A DNA stretch of 64,000 bases from NCBI GenBank assembly GCA_964502145.1, contig CAZCVI010000007.1, positions 118,297 to 182,296 on the forward strand, read 5' to 3'. The notes below the pieces were generated by a model, which did not search any database, was not told where the DNA came from, and saw nothing but the letters and a program-made list of their open reading frames with translations. This DNA is from an uncultured Clostridia bacterium (GTDB taxonomy: Bacteria; Acidobacteriota; Aminicenantia; UBA2199). Positions 11,646 to 20,715 of this stretch are shown here, piece by piece; within the stretch, counting starts at the first letter, position 1; every line of letters starts with the position of its first letter. A program made the position numbers and the translations under genes.

Positions 11646-11936
11646 GTGTCACCTCTCTTAAATTAGTCTTAAAATCTAATATAGCGTTATTATTATAAAA
11701 TCTATAAAATCGTTATTAATTCAATTTCTTTAAATTCGATTTTAAAACATTCCCACCCAATTGTCAATTAGAAATTTTATATCTAGTCAGTTTTTTGGCA
11801 GTAGGTATCATTGAATCTCTGATACGTTTCGCGCCACGATTTTATTTGACGCAAGTTAGATTGCAATATACTCATGTGGATGGCAAGCATTCATTGGGTT
11901 TTGGGGTACACCTTTTCCCTGTCATTGATTTATTGC

Positions 11937-12110: not shown

Positions 12111-12277
12111 CTGCCTAATGGTTCCGACGGTCAGGAACCTTTGAACCTGGCCGGGAATTAAAATTTAATTATAGTACATATTCCCGGTCAATTCAAGAGT
12201 GAAAAAACCGTCAAAAATTACCGAACGTGACCAAAATGTGACTATCTTTTTTTTTGACCAAAAAAAGAAGTGCCGTA
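12111..12277 (+). repeat. Island-boundary repeat copy A (about 165 bp) with core CCGAACGTGACCAAAATGTGACTAT and 5' motif GGTTCCGACGGTCAGGAACC
   Basis: It aligns along its length with 17711..17873 in the same orientation. A core copy also occurs at 20346..20367. Confidence 0.6.
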
Positions 12278-12355: not shown

Positions 12356-12865
12356 CTATAAGCGTTGAAAACCATTTTCATTGTGCAGACTAATCCATAG
12401 GCGGAGGCCTGGGGTATAAGAACCGACAATTATCATTATAAAAGCATTCAGTTCGTGCTTTGATTTTAAAAAGGAGTCTTGCATTGAGTGCAAGTCTATT
12501 ATAGAAGGAGATGGATTTCGCTGAAAATGGGTATGCCATTCTCCCACAAAGTGGAGATCTGTATTGAAGAACTGGGAAATGATATCTTTTTGCGGCTTTC
12601 GATACGGAATAAAGCTGAACTTGCTCCTCTTATCTAGTTTGTGTGGTGTTGTAGCTTGTTTGATGATGATTCTTGGTAGGCAAAGTTCGGCGAATAAAAG
12701 TCCTCCGGCTTCTGGTTTTCCACCAGTTTGGCGATAAAATTTAAAGATTTCTATCACCGGATCACTTAACTCCAAAATTTGACCCGAATTTGGTATTCGG
12801 TATCGAAAAACAGTGTCTTTGCTATCATCTAATTGCATACGGTGCAATCCTTTTTGGAATCCCAA
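12356..12865 (-). CDS. cap3: Cap3-like JAB/JAMM (MPN+) deubiquitinase-family peptidase
   Basis: JAMM motif E...HTHx7SxxD (EWHTHFQRNPSPSIIDL). It is the last gene of the operon and its start overlaps the end of cap2. The start could instead be M10 at 12838. Confidence 0.8.
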   Translation of the reverse strand: MGFQKGLHRMQLDDSKDTVFRYRIPNSGQILELSDPVIEIFKFYRQTGGKPEAGGLLFAELCLPRIIIKQATTPHKLDKRSKFSFIPYRKPQKDIISQFFNTDLHFVGEWHTHFQRNPSPSIIDLHSMQDSFLKSKHELNAFIMIIVGSYTPGLRLWISLHNENGFQRL

Positions 12866-14580
12866 CTTGTATAATGCACCCTGGAATATCCTTTTGAATC
12901 AATACGCACCTTCCATTCCGGGGAAATCAATGCATCAGTATTCCAAAAATACTCTCTATCACTTATCCAAGTCTTGAGTTCGGACCTTTCAGGTTTTTCA
13001 TTAAGGCTCCTTATTGCCTCATTGACAATTAATGAAACCACTGGTAGCATTGCAGCCGGGCCATACTGTTGATATTGTGTGCATTCACCGGGTTCACGTT
13101 TTAGTGTCTTCCCCTGAAATTTCGTTACTGCATATTTAAACTGACCGAATCTATTCATCTCACATGCCAAACAACCACTTCCATTTACCCTCAATAGACA
13201 GTGACCCGCGACGGCATAAGGCTCAAGCCATCCAAATAGAATAGGGGGAATTTTAATCTCATGAGATATGTAATTTAAAGGTCCTTCGCTTCTCCAGTCC
13301 CCAATAGTACTGACAATGATATCATAATTATCAAATAATTTATCATTGTCTCGAAGCGCATCTTGCCATTTCTTTGTAATCCAAGAAATTTGAAGATGTG
13401 GCATCTCGTTTCCTAAAGATAGAGCTGTTGCTTGTGCTTTGAACCTTCCACAAAATTTTGCTCCTAAAATGTGTCGTCCGATATTTGCCCATTTTAATTT
13501 GTCGTGATCTATAATAGTTATTTTGGAAACTCCAGCCTTGGCCAAATAATGTGCAACATATCCACCCAATGAACCGCAACCTATTAGTAATACAGCGCGT
13601 TTCTGAAAACTTCCTCCGTCCCCTCCACGAGAGTGAATCCAGGAATAATCTATACGTTCAACCAAGCATTTTGTGACTTTTGTCTTTTTCATCAATGGCA
13701 GACATTTGTCTATTATTTCTCTAATAGATTGCTTACCACTCATTATGAGATTATAATTAGTTACAGTCGTTACCTGAAAATAGACTCCCCCAAGAGCATA
13801 GCCATTATCTGTTTTCTGAGCTAAGAGAACAAAAATAAGAGGCTGTTTGGATACAAACAGCTTGATTAGCAACTCAAGCTCTTCTTCTGCATTTATAGAT
13901 AGTAACATGGTGACTAAGTCACTTAATGTCTCAGGGTATTCTTTTGGAAGTAAAGGGGCATCAAGAACTACCAAAATCCCATTTCTTGTTGATTTAACTT
14001 GGTTTTTAGTTCCAAAAAAATTCTCTTGCCATTTTTTTAAGCTTTCGGTAGAGATTGACGCAAAGATGAAATTTTCAGAATATGATATATCAAATGAGGT
14101 ACCAAGAACTTCTGGAGAATCAATAAGTAGAGAGACTTTGCCTCCGCTATCCAGGCAACGATTCCAATATACAGAAAATTCTGTTTGAAAATCGTCCACT
14201 TCTTTTCCTTCAAGTATTTTCTTTGTGGACTCAACTACTTCCCAAAATAAATCAACCGGATTATTAATATCAATACTTGATGATTCAGGAATAACACATA
14301 AATTACCATCTTCAAAGACATGAGGTATTTTTAATATCAATTTTTCGCCTCCAAGCACTTTGATTTGAGGAGGCTGGTCTGGAAAATCTTTGGTCAAGAG
14401 AACATGTATTTCCCATTTCTTTCCATTTGTTTCGACAAAGCTGCTCCATACTTTAAATTCTGATGGGTATCCATTATCTTCAGGTGGTAATTCACAAAAT
14501 TCCTTGTTATCAGCCAAAGCTTCAGAAATCATCTGAATAGACCGGTTTCGTCTGTCATTCAAACTGGACAAACTACTCAT
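12829..14580 (-). CDS. cap2: Cap2-like E2-E1 fusion (UBC-like N-terminus plus ThiF/MoeB-type E1 adenylation domain)
   Basis: E2-like PHVFEDGNLCVIP carries the catalytic Cys. E1 Rossmann motif LLIGCGSLGGYVAHYLAKAGVSKITIIDHD. C-terminal CxxC. ATGA overlap with the upstream CD-NTase gene. Confidence 0.85.
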   Translation of the reverse strand: MSSLSSLNDRRNRSIQMISEALADNKEFCELPPEDNGYPSEFKVWSSFVETNGKKWEIHVLLTKDFPDQPPQIKVLGGEKLILKIPHVFEDGNLCVIPESSSIDINNPVDLFWEVVESTKKILEGKEVDDFQTEFSVYWNRCLDSGGKVSLLIDSPEVLGTSFDISYSENFIFASISTESLKKWQENFFGTKNQVKSTRNGILVVLDAPLLPKEYPETLSDLVTMLLSINAEEELELLIKLFVSKQPLIFVLLAQKTDNGYALGGVYFQVTTVTNYNLIMSGKQSIREIIDKCLPLMKKTKVTKCLVERIDYSWIHSRGGDGGSFQKRAVLLIGCGSLGGYVAHYLAKAGVSKITIIDHDKLKWANIGRHILGAKFCGRFKAQATALSLGNEMPHLQISWITKKWQDALRDNDKLFDNYDIIVSTIGDWRSEGPLNYISHEIKIPPILFGWLEPYAVAGHCLLRVNGSGCLACEMNRFGQFKYAVTKFQGKTLKREPGECTQYQQYGPAAMLPVVSLIVNEAIRSLNEKPERSELKTWISDREYFWNTDALISPEWKVRIDSKGYSRVHYTSWDSKKDCTVCN

Positions 14581-15644
14581 CCGAACCTGCCGCCACCCCT
14601 GTGATCGACTGAACCTTTAGGAGTTGAAACTGCTATCCCAGCAGCAAAGTTGCTAACATTTTGACTATCGTTATTATTTTCATCATATTTTTTAAAGAAG
14701 CCATCACTCTTAAACACCCAATCCCAGATTGTGCTAGCGTCGGATTGCTTACAATCTATATTATCAAGAATTTCCAGTTTCTCCAGTGCTTCCTTGATTT
14801 TTTCCAATAACTGACAGACACTGTCATCCATTAAGGTTCGGGTAATTTGTGGATTATCGGGGTGTGCAAGATTAAAAATAACTTTCGAACATTCCAAACG
14901 TTTTTTCAGGTTCTTTAGAAGATTTCGAAAAGCTATGTCTAAGCCGCTTGAAAACTCCGGCTGACATTCAGATACAAGCATAGTTAACTTCATACCATTG
15001 GGTAAATCCCAATTTCTTTGACTGCGGCAGAATCGTTTCAATAACTGTACGAGTCTCCTCATTTGGGTACCTTTGCCATCCGTATTGTAGTTGCGATTTG
15101 TAACCTCAGATTCGAACCATACAGTAACCTGCGTCGGGTCTGAAACTGTCCAATTTTCGCCACTGGCAAGTTCTCGTTCGTATTTCCCTTCTCCATCATT
15201 ATACTTTCGATACACAGGAAAATCAACGTGATGTTTTTCTTCATCTCCATCTGCATAGAAAACACGAACACAATTGGTGCATAGTCTTGGCTGTCGATTA
15301 AAACGATTGTCCTTTAGTGCCTCTCGTACTTTATTTTTTACATCCATAGCTGACAATTCGTTTCCTTCAGCATTTATTAGATCACTTTTCCATAAAACCA
15401 AGCCATCATCTATATCGTATTCTTCATCCAAAAAACGTGCCTGAATAATGGTTTTCATTGCCATTGAGCCCTGGGGTTTGAAAGAAGATTCCCCGATGCT
15501 CAACCCCTCTATCTCTTCGGGAAGTCTTTTAATCAAGCGGTCACGGTTTACCTTTCTATGATTGAACAACTTATTTTTAGAATCCTCTCTAAGACATACC
15601 TTTTCATCCCAAAAGGCCTCTATTCGCTTACTATAATCGTACAT
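14577..15644 (-). CDS. cGAS/DncV-like nucleotidyltransferase (CD-NTase)
   Basis: Pol-beta-type GS...DID motif (QGSMAMKTIIQARFLDEEYDIDDG). Third acidic residue in HHVDFPVY. C-terminus ends ...GGGRFG, a Gly terminus suited to Cap2-mediated conjugation. Confidence 0.8.
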   Translation of the reverse strand: MYDYSKRIEAFWDEKVCLREDSKNKLFNHRKVNRDRLIKRLPEEIEGLSIGESSFKPQGSMAMKTIIQARFLDEEYDIDDGLVLWKSDLINAEGNELSAMDVKNKVREALKDNRFNRQPRLCTNCVRVFYADGDEEKHHVDFPVYRKYNDGEGKYERELASGENWTVSDPTQVTVWFESEVTNRNYNTDGKGTQMRRLVQLLKRFCRSQRNWDLPNGMKLTMLVSECQPEFSSGLDIAFRNLLKNLKKRLECSKVIFNLAHPDNPQITRTLMDDSVCQLLEKIKEALEKLEILDNIDCKQSDASTIWDWVFKSDGFFKKYDENNNDSQNVSNFAAGIAVSTPKGSVDHRGGGRFG

Positions 15645-15652
15645 GATCTCTC

Positions 15653-16408
15653 CTATTCTGTAGTTTCACTGAGTTGATTTGCGTATGCCATCCAATCAAC
15701 TGCTGGGACAGTGGCAAGTGATTGAAGTTTCCAAAGTAGACGAAATGCAAAATATGCAAGGGCGTTTCTCCTCGGACCAAATGAGTAATTATTATCCTCT
15801 GAAAAGACATCAAAGCAAGCTCCCGTCACTGCAAAACCACAATCAATTTTTTTGTGACCCGTCAATTGCAGATGATTTTGTTGGAAAGTGTCGCCTAGCC
15901 CATCGCCCCAACTAACATCTATAGCAAGGATTCCCCCAATGATATTAAACAATGGTTTTGCGTTGAATACACCTCCAGCGTGAAAAATATCGACGGATGT
16001 GCGTTTAAGCTTACGAACCGATGCAATCTTTTCGCCTGCGTATTCAAGGTATTGCTTATTAATGGTTGGTTTACATTCAAACACCGCGTAAACCGCTTCT
16101 GCCGGAACGTATCTGTGTTTGGCGTTGTCCAATAATGTTGGAGTATATTGCCGGTCAAATACCACAACATCAATTGAATCACTAACCGCTCCTTCACTGT
16201 CAAGAACGATAGCCTTCTCTACTGTGTACCGATTTGGTAGATATGAACGCAGGAAATCAAGAAAAAACTGTTCATTTACTTCTCCGCGGTCACCTGGATG
16301 CGTAATACGTGAAGATGAGCGAAGGTTTACTTCAAGACATTCTTGTTCGGATGAAAAAGCATCTCTGAGGAACTGTGTCGAGTTGGGAATATTTAATATT
16401 GCACACAT
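15653..16408 (-). CDS. Putative CBASS effector with a restriction-endonuclease-like PD-(D/E)xK motif (possibly NucC-like; about 251-284 aa)
   Basis: SIDVVVFD...AVFECKP gives D...D...ExK. The start is ambiguous. ATG 16408 follows the upstream stop. ATG 16507 has a GGAG 3 nt upstream but would overlap the DUF2188 gene by 74 nt. Confidence 0.55.
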   Translation of the reverse strand: MCAILNIPNSTQFLRDAFSSEQECLEVNLRSSSRITHPGDRGEVNEQFFLDFLRSYLPNRYTVEKAIVLDSEGAVSDSIDVVVFDRQYTPTLLDNAKHRYVPAEAVYAVFECKPTINKQYLEYAGEKIASVRKLKRTSVDIFHAGGVFNAKPLFNIIGGILAIDVSWGDGLGDTFQQNHLQLTGHKKIDCGFAVTGACFDVFSEDNNYSFGPRRNALAYFAFRLLWKLQSLATVPAVDWMAYANQLSETTE

Positions 16409-16433
16409 CTTGGTGTCAGTGTATTTATAAAAA

Positions 16434-16682
16434 TTACATTTCAGTATCTTTGATTGATCTCGGATCATTTCCCGGGGCAATAGTATCTTTACTACGAATT
16501 TTCCCATTAACTCCCTTTGTGATCAATTCACCACCACCTTGGTTATTGAGCATTTTTTTTGCAGTGTCCCCTGCCTCTTTTTGAGTATTGTGAAGCGAAG
16601 ATGCTTGATCGGAATCAATCCGCTTATTAACCCATTTTCCATCATTACGCTTGTAAACTATTCTATCTCTGTCTTTGCTCAT
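16434..16682 (-). CDS. DUF2188-family small protein (82 aa)
   Basis: The DUF2188 pattern is present (VYKRNDGKWVNK...TQKEA...ELITKGVNGKIRSKDTIAPGNDPRSIKD). AAGGAG lies 6 nt upstream of ATG 16682. The track ORF starts further upstream at TTG. Confidence 0.7.
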   Translation of the reverse strand: MSKDRDRIVYKRNDGKWVNKRIDSDQASSLHNTQKEAGDTAKKMLNNQGGGELITKGVNGKIRSKDTIAPGNDPRSIKDTEM

Positions 16683-17347
16683 ATCTTTCTCCTTTGTTAA
16701 TATTAACAATTCTCATCTTTTTCCTTTCCTTATGATTCTGACCCTTGTTTTCAGTATCCATGGGGCTATTAACTTTATTTTCCTCCTTCTCTGGCTCTAA
16801 ATCTGAGTCAAACGTCACCACATAAATATTATCCTAAAATGCTAATATTATATTGTAGCATCAATTTTCCATTTTGTCAACAAAAAAAACAGTATCTATT
16901 CAGTTTTTTGGCAGCGGCCCCACCCACGTCGCTTTGCGCCGTGGGATTATAACTGGAAAGAAACTCGTGCAATTGGGAGTGCTTGGAAACAGTAGAGTAA
17001 AAGAATGCGACAAGGATGTCGCGTCTACATAGACGCGCCATCCCTGGCGCATTAAAAAAAAATATACTGCCAAATTACTGGTATCTCCTGAAGAGGTATT
17101 TGCTCCCATGGATGATATTTGGGCGGATTATCTGTGACAAAAGCCAAATCTCGGCAGTTACGGAAAACCTTACACCAAAAACAATGATTAGTGTGCTCAT
17201 TTGTAAATAAATTCCCCGATTTTTCGGAAATTTTGCCCTCCAGCCTGATTCGCAAGTGAATTAGGGTCAGTGATGACTGAATTAGAGTCAAAAAAGTGCA
17301 AATAGGGTAAACGATGACCGATTTTCATGTAAATTTTTCCTCAAAGG

Positions 17348-17380
17348 GTCAACGATGACCCTCGGAGGGACATCGTTGAC
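17348..17380. repeat. Near-perfect 33-bp palindrome GTCAACGATGACCCTCGGAGGGACATCGTTGAC
   Basis: Read directly. It is part of a composite element that is repeated in inverted orientation at 57.2 kb. Confidence 0.8.
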
Positions 17381-17422
17381 TGATTTAGATAGAATTCAGT
17401 GCAAATTCGTATCATTTTGACC

Positions 17423-17640
17423 GATTTTCAGTCGTGGATGACCGATGGCGGACAATTTTGTCCGACAAGGGACAATGATGAGTGATTTTCAGTCGTGGAT
17501 GACCGTTGGCGGACAATTTTGTCCAACAAGGGACAATGATGAGTGATTTTCAGTCTCTGATGACCGATGGCGGACAATTTTGTCCAACAGGGACAATGAT
17601 GAGTGATTTTCAGTCGCTGGTGACCATTGGGCGGCAAAAA
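17423..17640 (+). repeat. Tandem direct repeats: 3.5 units of about 61 bp (GATTTTCAGTCGTGGATGACCGATGGCGGACAATTTTGTCCGACAAGGGACAATGATGAGT), each with an internal small hairpin
   Basis: Units run 17423-17483, 17484-17544 and 17545-17604, then a partial unit. No unique spacers are present, so this is not CRISPR. Confidence 0.85.
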
Positions 17641-17710
17641 TAATACTATTAGGCTTGGCAATGCTTTTATTCCTGAAATATAGCCTGACCAGAAACTAAA
17701 AAATAATTCC

Positions 17711-17873
17711 CCTGCCTCCGGCGGCCAAGAATGCTTGAACCCGGCCTAAATCTGAAATATAATTATAACAGAAGTTCCCAGACAACTCAAAAGGAAAAAA
17801 ATCACCCAAATTCCCCGAACGTGACCAAAACGTGACTATTGTTTGTTTTTAACTAAATGCCGTTCTGCTATTT
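17711..17873 (+). repeat. Island-boundary repeat copy B (homolog of 12111..12277)
   Basis: Shared core CCGAACGTGACCAAAACGTGACTAT and a shared 5' region (CTGCCTCCGGCGGCCAAGAA...TTGAACC.GGCC...AATTATA...). Confidence 0.6.
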
Positions 17874-17908: not shown

Positions 17909-18661
17909 CTAATGACCTTTTGGAACTATTACAACCTTGACAATAAAATCGTCGTTATTTCTGGCAAGATCATTTTCTAATCCTCTTGGGTTTGATATCA
18001 ATCCTTCTGGATCATAAACAAAACAGATGAGTTTCTTACAATCTGGATGTTTTTGATATCGCTGAATATCCACTAGTAGCTCTTCTCCAATCTGTTTCTC
18101 CTTTAAGGTTTTCCGGGTCTTCTTTACTTCAATGATTATTTGTTCTTCCTTTATGAGGAAATCTATCCTTGAGTTACTCCCGGCATAGCTTGGCGTATAT
18201 TCTTCAGGTCGGATATCATCAAAAAAAATGTGTAACAGCGAATGCAACAAATCCTGCGTGTCATATTCATCGTTGACTTCCAGTGTTGCACCTTCTGAAT
18301 GGCGTGATCTCAGTTGCTTCGCAACAAGATGAAAACGCGAACATATTTGCTCTATCAGTTTAAGAGAATTTTGTTTACTTGGCTCCGATACCAGTTGGGA
18401 TAGCTTTTCTTTGCTTAGAGTCCACGGAAATGGCTCACCGCAATTTTCACAATGTGTCGGAACAGGTTCTGTAGAAGGAATACCAAATACACCATCAACA
18501 TGGTAATCTCCCTTTATTGGATGATTACAGTGCGGACATTGGTGAATAGTTTTTTCACCACAACTTGGACAGAAGCTTTTTCTAAACTCAGGATATTTAT
18601 TGTAATTGTCTGTAGTTTGATGACCTTTCAAACAAACTTGCTGAACATCATAATCTCCCAT
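17909..18661 (-). CDS. Hypothetical protein with two N-terminal zinc ribbons and a C-terminal PD-(D/E)xK-like nuclease-fold motif
   Basis: CPSCGEK...CPHCNH...CENCGE. C-terminal ...FFDD...RIDFLIKEEQIIIEVKKT gives D...ExK. Confidence 0.55.
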   Translation of the reverse strand: MGDYDVQQVCLKGHQTTDNYNKYPEFRKSFCPSCGEKTIHQCPHCNHPIKGDYHVDGVFGIPSTEPVPTHCENCGEPFPWTLSKEKLSQLVSEPSKQNSLKLIEQICSRFHLVAKQLRSRHSEGATLEVNDEYDTQDLLHSLLHIFFDDIRPEEYTPSYAGSNSRIDFLIKEEQIIIEVKKTRKTLKEKQIGEELLVDIQRYQKHPDCKKLICFVYDPEGLISNPRGLENDLARNNDDFIVKVVIVPKGH

Positions 18662-19186: not shown

Positions 19187-20299
19187 ATGGATAATAAAAA
19201 CAACTATGAACGCAAAATAAGAGGACGCAAACGCATGGATGCCTCATTCCCCGTTGGGCCTGGAAATGGCGATTTGCCGGAAAGTTATGACACCACGCTT
19301 GGTTCTATCAAAGCACGCATCCAGACTGAACGTCTTCGTATGGTTTTGTCTGCCAATGAAGCAATGATATTGCTGTATTGGGATATTGGCAATGAAATTC
19401 TTGAACGCCAACAACAGGAAGGTTGGGGGGCAAAGGTTATTGACCGACTTTCGGCTGATCTGTGCAAATCTTTTCCCGATATGAAGGGCCTTTCAATGCG
19501 AAATTTACTATTCATGCGTTCTTTTGCGGAAGCATACTCGGATCGGCAAATAGTGAAACAGCTTGTTTCACAATTGCCTTGGGGGCACAATATCCGTATT
19601 TTACAAAAAATCAAAGACCTGGAGAAACGCTTGTGGTACATCAAAATGAGCATTCAAAACGGCTGGTCCCGAAATATTCTTGAACTTCAGATTGATTCCT
19701 GTACATGTGAGCGTCAAGGACAGACCATAAATAATTTTGCAATCACATTGCCTCCTGGGGATTCAGACATGGCAGCTCAAGTATTTAAGGATCCATATCT
19801 ATTCGATTTTATAGGAACAGCCGATCCTCGTCGTGAACGCGAAATTGAGCAGGCCCTAGTAGATCACATTCAGCAGTTCCTGCTGGAACTCGGGACAGGA
19901 TTTGCATTTGTAGGACGGCAGGTTCACCTTGAATTGGGCGATAATGATTTCTATATCGATTTGCTTTTTTATCATCTTATATTACGTTGTTATGTGGTCG
20001 TTGAATTGAAGGCTGTGCCTTTTGAGCCAGGTTTTGTTGGCACATTGAACATGTATTTGTCTGCTGTAGATGATCTATTGCGCCATCCGGACGACAAACC
20101 AACCATTGGATTATTGCTTTGTAAGAACAAAAAACAGCTATTGGTAGAGTATGCACTTCGTGGCTTTCGAAAACCTATCGGTGTGGCTGAATGGGAGACG
20201 AAGCTTGTTAAATCGTTACCTTCTGAATTGAAAGGCTGTTTGCCTACGATAGAAGAGATTGAAGCGGAACTTACAAAGAAAGTGCAAAATAATGAATAA
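19187..20299 (+). CDS. YhcG-like DUF1016 PD-(D/E)xK nuclease-family protein
   Basis: The length and the C-terminal motif DFYIDLLFYHLILRCYVVVELKA are characteristic of the DUF1016/YhcG family. Confidence 0.7.
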   Translation: MDNKNNYERKIRGRKRMDASFPVGPGNGDLPESYDTTLGSIKARIQTERLRMVLSANEAMILLYWDIGNEILERQQQEGWGAKVIDRLSADLCKSFPDMKGLSMRNLLFMRSFAEAYSDRQIVKQLVSQLPWGHNIRILQKIKDLEKRLWYIKMSIQNGWSRNILELQIDSCTCERQGQTINNFAITLPPGDSDMAAQVFKDPYLFDFIGTADPRREREIEQALVDHIQQFLLELGTGFAFVGRQVHLELGDNDFYIDLLFYHLILRCYVVVELKAVPFEPGFVGTLNMYLSAVDDLLRHPDDKPTIGLLLCKNKKQLLVEYALRGFRKPIGVAEWETKLVKSLPSELKGCLPTIEEIEAELTKKVQNNE

Positions 20300-20715
20300 A
20301 ACTTACGTCGTGAGATTGCGATCGGGAAAACAATAAGAACGGTTAAACGTGACCAAAACGTGATTGGTTTATACCATTTTTTAGTAGTTTTTAGTGGTTT
20401 ATAGTAAAAATAAAAATGCTGAAGAAATTCACTGGTTAATGATTTTTACCACACAACTATCTTTTTGGGGACTGATAAAAAAATCAGACCGTTGCCTCCG
20501 GCGGCCAAGAACCCTTTCGAGAAAGGGTTCCTGGACCTCCTAAAGCTTTTGCTATTTAAGGGACTCAACCATACTTACAGAAACTGGTAGGTACACAAAG
20601 AGTTACTAAACAAATGGGACGCAGTCCCCCCTCCGACGGCCAGGGGGCTCTTTTTTAAAGACCACCCTGACCGTGGAACATCGGGCAAAACTTTTTATAT
20701 ATTTATCACAGCGTG

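Follow-up and report, generated by a model that had tools for sequence, protein, structure and literature searches.

A type II CBASS operon with a NucC effector and a leading DUF2188 gene in an uncultured bacterium

The window analyzed here (the whole stretch of 64,000 nt from contig CAZCVI010000007.1 of an uncultured bacterium; all coordinates refer to it) carries a five-gene locus, which we assign with good confidence to a horizontally acquired and intact type II CBASS (a defense against phages that signals through cyclic oligonucleotides). It is probably transcribed from one promoter upstream of a gene for a DUF2188 protein, which would be an optional leader. The other four genes code for the effector nuclease NucC, a CD-NTase (cGAS/DncV-like nucleotidyltransferase, the cyclase), the E2-E1 fusion protein Cap2 and the isopeptidase Cap3. 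The initial annotation of this DNA had described five co-directional minus-strand genes and had called them a type II CBASS, with an effector and accessory part that might be new. The five genes are all present, and strong profile matches to CD-NTase, Cap2, Cap3 and a nuclease effector bear out the type II call. The proposed novelty of the effector fails. A check of the open reading frames (ORFs) of the window confirmed the five genes in the region 12356-16709:

16434..16682, minus strand: DUF2188 protein, 82 aa, first cistron; ATG start behind an AGGAG ribosome-binding site
15653..16408, minus strand: NucC effector endonuclease, 251 aa; in-frame alternative starts at 16468 (271 aa) and 16507 (284 aa)
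14577..15644, minus strand: CD-NTase, CdnB-like, 355 aa; C-terminus GGGRFG on a tail modeled as disordered (PADLOC, Pfam, motifs)
12829..14580, minus strand: Cap2, E2-E1 fusion, 583 aa (PADLOC, Pfam, PDB)
12356..12838, minus strand: Cap3, JAB/JAMM isopeptidase, 160 aa with ATG 12838 as start, 169 aa with the ORF extended to a TTG at 12865

Gene set and the NucC effector

The Pfam domains found across the operon are DncV-like_NTFase, Prok-E2_B with ThiF, Prok-JAB, DUF6602 and DUF2188. The junctions are tight: the CD-NTase and Cap2 genes overlap by 4 nt, those of Cap2 and Cap3 by 10 nt, and 8 nt separate NucC from the CD-NTase. The same gene layout, with an identical 355-aa cyclase sequence, is found on four public contigs, each from a different assembly sample. 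How DUF2188 and NucC adjoin depends on the start codon of NucC, which is ambiguous, because homology and two of the public gene calls favor the ATG at 16408, but the sole Shine-Dalgarno-like motif near the NucC starts stands in front of ATG 16507. In the 284-aa ORF, similarity to solved NucC proteins sets in near residue 28-47, and public gene callers chose ATG 16408 on two contigs and ATG 16468 (271 aa) on two others. The overlap of DUF2188 with the 5' region of the nuclease, as initially described, requires a nuclease start at 16507 and then measures 74 nt; the start at 16408, which homology supports, leaves a gap of 25 nt.

As judged from its sequence, the 251/284-aa nuclease is a canonical NucC. 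It matches the PADLOC models "Effector: Endonuclease (NucC)" (6.1e-93) and "NucC nuclease" (4.1e-72). Its best solved match is the NucC from Serratia (7zgv, 2.7e-80), and the one from Escherichia coli MS115-1 (6p7o) is matched at 7e-47. The PD-(D/E)xK core is kept as I79-D80-x30-E111-C112-K113 (251-aa numbering). In E. coli NucC, mutagenesis by Lau et al. established a need for D73, E104 and K106 of the IDx30EAK motif, for R53, Y81, T226 and V227, which contact cyclic triadenylate (cA3), and for H136 and Y141, the latch of the gate loop (bioRxiv 10.1101/694703). The equivalents of the four cA3 contacts are conserved in the window protein. In the latch, the equivalent of H136 is conserved and Y141 is replaced by F, which is a conservative change (all mapped by hand from the PDB-search alignment).

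The lack of an obvious SAVED or other sensor domain had been taken as an argument for novelty. This argument does not hold: a SAVED domain is expected to be missing, because the three-fold pocket of the NucC trimer is itself the sensor. NucC binds the cyclic trinucleotide in a pocket made by its own trimer (bioRxiv 10.1101/694703). With the active site and this pocket conserved, novelty of the effector is refuted, because the effector is NucC itself. By analogy, a shift from trimer to hexamer upon binding of cA3 and a cA3-dependent cleavage of double-stranded DNA (dsDNA) are predicted for the window NucC.

The system resembles several known ones, each in part. Type II CBASS from Enterobacter cloacae (CdnD-Cap2-Cap3-Cap4), Bacillus cereus WPySW2, Pseudomonas aeruginosa Pa011 and Vibrio cholerae (DncV) have the core set and the logic of gene order in common with it, and also the C-terminal Gly tail of the cyclase, the E2 cysteine and ThiF Rossmann motif of Cap2, and a Cap3 with a JAMM motif. 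In the window, however, NucC takes the place of Cap4 or CapV as effector, and a CdnB-like enzyme that of CdnA or CdnD as cyclase. The type III CBASS from E. coli MS115-1 and P. aeruginosa ATCC27853 (CdnC/CdnD with HORMA, TRIP13 and NucC) have the same effector family, with an alike active site and cA3 pocket, but in the window regulation would fall to Cap2 and Cap3 instead of HORMA and TRIP13, and the cyclase is of another clade. The NucC proteins associated with type III CRISPR (Serratia 7zgv, Vibrio metoecus 6uxf) belong to the same nuclease family; there, the signal generator is Cas10 and not a CD-NTase.

The gene order NucC-cyclase-Cap2-Cap3 is seen again on at least four further public contigs, two from genomes (L033, L040) and two from metagenomes (L142, L143; 60-62% cyclase identity), none of them with DUF2188. 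The window system thus belongs to a known and recurrent kind. Most cyclase relatives are found in two-gene NucC-cyclase (type I) systems from metagenome-assembled genomes (MAGs) of Verrucomicrobiota and other members of the Planctomycetes-Verrucomicrobia-Chlamydiae group; the closest relatives in genomes are 47-60% identical. These type I systems have the same order of NucC followed by the cyclase, and two of them (L013, L039) also have an upstream DUF2188 gene, but they lack Cap2 and Cap3. On a further contig (L144, GCA_024449935.1, 1917-7993), a cyclase with 64% identity and a Cap2 adjoin a type III CRISPR locus with its genes for Cas10 and RAMP proteins, so that two different kinds of nucleotide-signaling defense stand side by side.

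Cyclase, conjugation machinery and C-terminal tail

The 355-aa protein is confirmed as a CD-NTase by profile and by fold (PADLOC Cyclase, 9.1e-98; Pfam DncV-like_NTFase PF21654, 2e-16). The polymerase-beta signature (GS...DID...D) reported initially is present, as are all motifs quoted for Cap2 and Cap3, and each was located at defined residues. The catalytic motif of the cyclase is G59-S60, D77-I78-D79 and D141, of which G59-S60, D77, D79 and D141 are invariant across 30 homologs (55-72% identity). The closest solved enzyme is BfCdnB from Bacteroides fragilis (7LJO, clade B04), whether the single sequence, the profile or the predicted fold is compared. In the PDB profile search, BfCdnB was found with an E-value of 5e-19 (DncV: 4e-8), and a Foldseek search with the AlphaFold2 model of the cyclase also led to BfCdnB (E-value 7e-17, target-normalized template modeling score (TMt) 0.84, 24% identity). 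In the structure ranking, BfCdnB is followed by DncV and by CdnB from Deinococcus (DwCdnB); CdnC and CdnD, the cA3 synthases, come further down. We therefore describe the cyclase as CdnB-like, with clade B as the closest clade according to sequence and model; this is an assignment by nearest solved enzyme rather than by placement in a reference tree. The model has a mean pLDDT (predicted local distance difference test) of 86, with residues 327-355 below 50 and considered disordered.

This disordered tail ends in GGGRFG at residue 355, in agreement with the initially noted C-terminal Gly. In type II CBASS, Cap2 activates the C-terminus of the cyclase and conjugates it to a target (summarized in PMC11153139). 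The Cap2 of the window matches the PADLOC E1-E2 model (1e-126) over residues 9-582, in Pfam Prok-E2_B (6.5e-11) and ThiF (1.9e-26), and in the PDB the Cap2 structures 7tsq and 7to3, which confirms the described fusion of an E2 cysteine motif to a ThiF-type E1. The E2 cysteine is Cys95 in PHVFEDGNLC (86-95); the Rossmann motif GCGSLGG (GxGxxGG) covers residues 334-340, and CxxC motifs are found at 470-473 and 579-582. Cap3 matches the PADLOC JAB model (3.9e-48) and Pfam Prok-JAB (2.4e-7). It also matches the NCBIfam equivalog for Cap3 (1.9e-14), with 54 bits, which is below the curated cut-off of 200 bits. Its JAMM motif is complete (HTHx7SxxD at 102-115, with H102, H104, S112 and D115, and E43 in EAGG 43-46; 160-aa numbering).

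The C-termini of related cyclases were compared in 49 related genome loci. Cyclases linked to Cap2 end in GGGR[FY]G (L005, L007, L033, L040) or in GGQYA (L029). In contrast, about 30 relatives without Cap2 and Cap3 either run on for 1-5 residues past a conserved H-x-F-Y-G (C-terminus of type I cyclases: H-x-F-Y-G-[DE]-x(1-5)) or have a C-terminal AGS-C domain. Among the relatives, the GGGR[FY]G ending is restricted to those with Cap2. This correlation between Cap2 linkage and C-terminus supports a functional conjugation tail in the window cyclase, which, from sequence and model, would be usable for conjugation by Cap2. Across L006-L037, the C-termini resemble a natural switch between type I and type II at this tail, or else a Gly that is masked until it is processed.

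DUF2188 and the flanks of the operon

The small first gene was correctly recognized as DUF2188 (Pfam PF09954, 4.8e-17, 62.3 bits against a cut-off of 22 bits) and matches the PADLOC candidate PDC-S16 (1.8e-16). Its AlphaFold2 model (pLDDT 84) is a small beta3-alpha-beta2 domain, for which a structure search returned no significant match. Published work has proposed that the family has a HicB-N-like fold. Sequence matches in the PDB, by single sequence and by profile, were to designed helical repeats only and were judged spurious. An equation with the "Pepco" domain was rejected, as the Pepco preprint describes a different, pore-forming protein of 117 aa. The 82-aa subfamily found in the window is 70-80% identical across phyla.

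DUF2188 had been said not to be a known CBASS component. This is correct in that it is no defined Cap protein, but DUF2188 has already been drawn in the literature beside the type II CBASS of P. aeruginosa Pa011, it is listed as PDC-S16, and it is linked to defense operons; a paper citing Burroughs & Aravind 2020, the primary source on DUF2188 in defense, reports it in CapH/CapP-linked ones. In an iterated search with hidden Markov models, DUF2188 was found in 5 of the 49 related CBASS genome loci, each time on the same strand and directly upstream of the first CBASS gene. These loci span type I systems with NucC (L013, L039), a type II system with a patatin effector, and E2-only systems with a transmembrane (TM) effector. 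By eye, L046 has a divergent pair of genes for 121-aa and 197-aa proteins (CapH/CapP-like by layout), followed by DUF2188, patatin, cyclase, Cap2 and Cap3. L049 and L052 have an upstream gene for a protein of about 200 aa (in one case with a start like that of an XRE-type helix-turn-helix (HTH) protein), then DUF2188, a hydrophobic, TM-effector-like protein of about 200 aa, the cyclase and an E2-only protein, also by eye.

The reverse view, from DUF2188 outward, gave a different picture: CD-NTase, Cap2 and Cap3 are absent from all 80 closest metagenomic DUF2188 loci. In these loci, the upstream neighbors are enriched for HTH_3 and Peptidase_M78, and downstream neighbors include DNA methylases, restriction-modification (R-M) systems of type I and type ISP, TIR, trypsin and DUF2321; toxin-antitoxin (TA) genes are also among the neighbors. 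Elsewhere, DUF2188 likewise leads variable defense cargo. In Desulfosarcina widdelii (L061, AP021875.1), it stands between HTH-M78 and a type I R-M system; on a Methylocaldum plasmid (L149, NZ_OX458334.1), between XRE and Vsr, a C5-methyltransferase and GIY-YIG; and on an Agrobacterium (A. vitis) plasmid, between ImmA/IrrE with HTH and a TIR protein. Together with L046 (by its layout), these are operons of the CapH/CapP-controlled kind (HTH with ImmA/IrrE M78) that have the same DUF2188-first order as the window; in the window, however, only non-coding repeats and a promoter-like site lie upstream of DUF2188. Before the two R-M systems (L061, L149), the same trio is seen, a hypothetical protein of about 210-220 aa, a fusion of XRE/HTH to an M78 peptidase of about 360 aa, and DUF2188, which suggests a portable regulatory front end. 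Lone copies of DUF2188 occur on plasmids beside TA loci and inside structural modules of phage-plasmids. In a Mycobacterium abscessus prophage (L148, phage prophiT48-1, 1785-2719), the gene after that for a BrnT-like toxin codes for an annotated antitoxin of 197 aa, in which a DUF2188 domain with 46% identity to the window protein makes up the C-terminal 70 residues.

The following features flank the operon:

16852..16880, minus strand: sigma-70-like promoter, TTGACA-17-TACAAT with TG, a consensus match about 170 nt upstream of DUF2188
12123..12263, no strand: 141-nt direct repeat, copy 1, just downstream of Cap3
17717..17857, no strand: 141-nt direct repeat, copy 2, at the upstream boundary of the cassette region and just downstream of the DpnII-like gene
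17909..18661, minus strand: fusion of a DUF2321 zinc ribbon to a DpnII/MboI-type restriction endonuclease, 250 aa (Pfam 7e-60; PADLOC "Aga_Helical-REase" models)
19187..20299, plus strand: YhcG/DUF1016 PD-(D/E)xK protein (PADLOC candidate PDC-S02, 6e-147)

The site at 16852..16880 is likely the operon promoter, as far as its sequence tells. It has 11 of 12 consensus matches and is the second best site in 11.5-19.5 kb, a range with 39 such sites, where shuffled sequence would give 21. No HTH, M78 or WYL regulator was found within 1.2 kb upstream of DUF2188: the small ORFs at 16663-17661 have no Pfam match, and the next gene upstream is that for the DUF2321/DpnII-like protein rather than for CapH/CapP or CapW. 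Rfam gave nothing credible in the same 1.2 kb.

The DUF2188-CBASS cassette is framed by a duplicated intergenic block. The two copies of the 141-nt repeat are 72% identical, and an accompanying 41-nt pair (11761-11801 and 16874-16914) is 78% identical. The 18-mer AACGTGACCAAAACGTGA inside the 141-nt repeat has three copies in the window (12224, 17818, 20346), where 0.03 would be expected. The 141-nt unit holds GTCAC-N6-GTCAC and a promoter-like site (TTGAnT-17-TATAAT), and its folding gave weak structure only (z about -1.9). The 41-nt unit carries the -35 box common to a serA-like promoter and the DUF2188 promoter; in the second copy, this box is that of the promoter-like site upstream of DUF2188. 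The block could mark boundaries of insertion or recombination, or could be a shared operator. A reading as integron cassettes was set aside: there is no integrase in 12-21 kb, the part of the window that was screened, and one neighboring gene is on the opposite strand. The non-coding DNA that separates the DpnII-like gene from DUF2188 holds a 61-nt tandem repeat (17393-17637, 3.3-4 copies, about 91% match). Rfam gave no match for it, and the ORF that spans it has no Pfam match.

The GC content is 0.37-0.41 across 12-21 kb and 0.45-0.48 on either side, and the CBASS, DpnII-like and YhcG genes form a small low-GC defense island. No methylase gene is adjacent to the DpnII-like gene. In one metagenome locus, a DUF2321 protein is also encoded directly downstream of DUF2188. 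The YhcG/DUF1016 gene is followed by a strong hairpin that resembles a bidirectional terminator (about 20478-20516, z -4.0). The best named relatives of the flanking serA-like gene are from MAGs of Ca. Aminicenantes (71-72% identity), and two relatives that keep the synteny of serA with phospholipase B have no defense genes upstream of serA.

Alternative readings and significance

Most likely, the cyclase makes a cyclic trinucleotide such as 3'3'3'-cAAA. This is argued from the conserved NucC pocket, from more than 30 loci in which NucC and this cyclase family form a stable pair, and from a cyclase with 63% identity to that of the window (L145), which is paired with a CHAT-SAVED effector. Clade membership does not predict cA3, because BfCdnB makes mainly 3'3'-cGAMP (cyclic GMP-AMP) (PMC10442399). 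The signal of the cyclase might be different from cA3 and could, as with BfCdnB, be a cyclic dinucleotide, in which case the ligand specificity of NucC would have shifted and the chemistry would be new. Such a signal would suit the ranking of BfCdnB, DncV and DwCdnB as the closest solved enzymes by sequence and fold, and also the change of the latch residue Y141 to F. We nevertheless consider it unlikely, given that all NucC pocket residues that contact bases or phosphates are conserved, the pocket is three-fold symmetric and the pairing with NucC is stable; moreover, inferring a product at clade level is weak when the identity to BfCdnB is 24%.

As to DUF2188, our reading is that it is a promiscuous first-cistron module of defense operons, optional and presumably dispensable for this CBASS family, with a role that is most likely auxiliary or regulatory. 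If it were instead a true functional part of this CBASS (an antitoxin-like brake on NucC, a signal buffer, a sensor or an expression-coupling factor), the operon would be a new five-gene variant. Its first place on the same strand, with a gap of at most 25 nt or an overlap, in 6 independent CBASS loci that cover three effector types and two DUF2188 subfamilies is in favor of this, as are its presence beside the Pa011 system, the position of the only strong promoter-like site upstream of it, the annotated antitoxin that it ends in the M. abscessus prophage, and the proposed HicB-N-like fold. It is missing, however, from the four closest type II and about 30 type I relatives with NucC, the 80 closest DUF2188 loci are without CBASS, and its partners are highly variable (R-M, TIR, TA, none), which makes a dedicated CBASS function unlikely in our view. 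Only somewhat less doubtful is that DUF2188 is an unrelated stand-alone gene (a single-gene defense candidate, a TA remnant or a mobile-element moron) that adjoins CBASS through clustering of defense genes. PDC-S16 is indeed a single-gene candidate in PADLOC, lone copies are known from plasmids and phage-plasmids, and the high identity across phyla suggests frequent transfer; but its position is non-random, as all five copies near related CBASS are in the slot immediately 5' on the same strand, and elsewhere it likewise stands ahead of defense genes and behind HTH/M78 regulators. It is tempting to speculate that DUF2188 is a generic front-end component of many defense operons (CBASS types I and II, R-M, TIR; often with CapH/CapP-like control), which modulates the expression or activity of downstream toxic effectors and here would act on a CBASS with a clade-B-like cyclase and NucC, but we would not put much weight on this idea.

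Several points weigh against an intact type II CBASS transcribed from one promoter with DUF2188 as an optional leader. A NucC start at 16507, with its overlap, would imply a tighter coupling to DUF2188, and the constant first-in-operon place of DUF2188 could mean that it is functionally important. The operon promoter is no more than a consensus match, and no terminator is predicted after Cap3. The cyclase product is uncertain, since known cA3 synthases are CdnC and CdnD whereas the window cyclase is nearest to clade B. Activity of the operon and abortive infection are deduced from homology.

With the type II CBASS reading, the system would work as follows, by analogy to characterized relatives. 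Cap2 would prime the CdnB-like cyclase by adenylation and conjugation of its flexible C-terminal Gly355, and Cap3 would undo this conjugation. The primed cyclase would make the signal, most likely a cyclic trinucleotide such as 3'3'3'-cAAA, which would enter the three-fold pocket of the NucC trimer, so that two trimers assemble into a hexamer. The hexamer would degrade dsDNA, and the infection would be aborted. DUF2188 would be co-transcribed as a promiscuous defense-island module, outside of the nucleotide-signaling pathway.

As a CBASS, the locus adds little: it is a further type II system from an uncultured bacterium, and its effector is known. Two points may be of modest use. First, a CdnB-like family with NucC as its stable partner, and in one case with a SAVED effector, predicts the synthesis of cyclic trinucleotides outside of clades C and D. 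Within the same cyclase family there are natural sister systems of type I and type II, whose difference lies exactly at the C-terminus of the cyclase. Second, DUF2188 recurs as the first gene of unrelated defense operons, and this compact operon, being devoid of an HTH/M78 regulator, is a clean place to probe its function.

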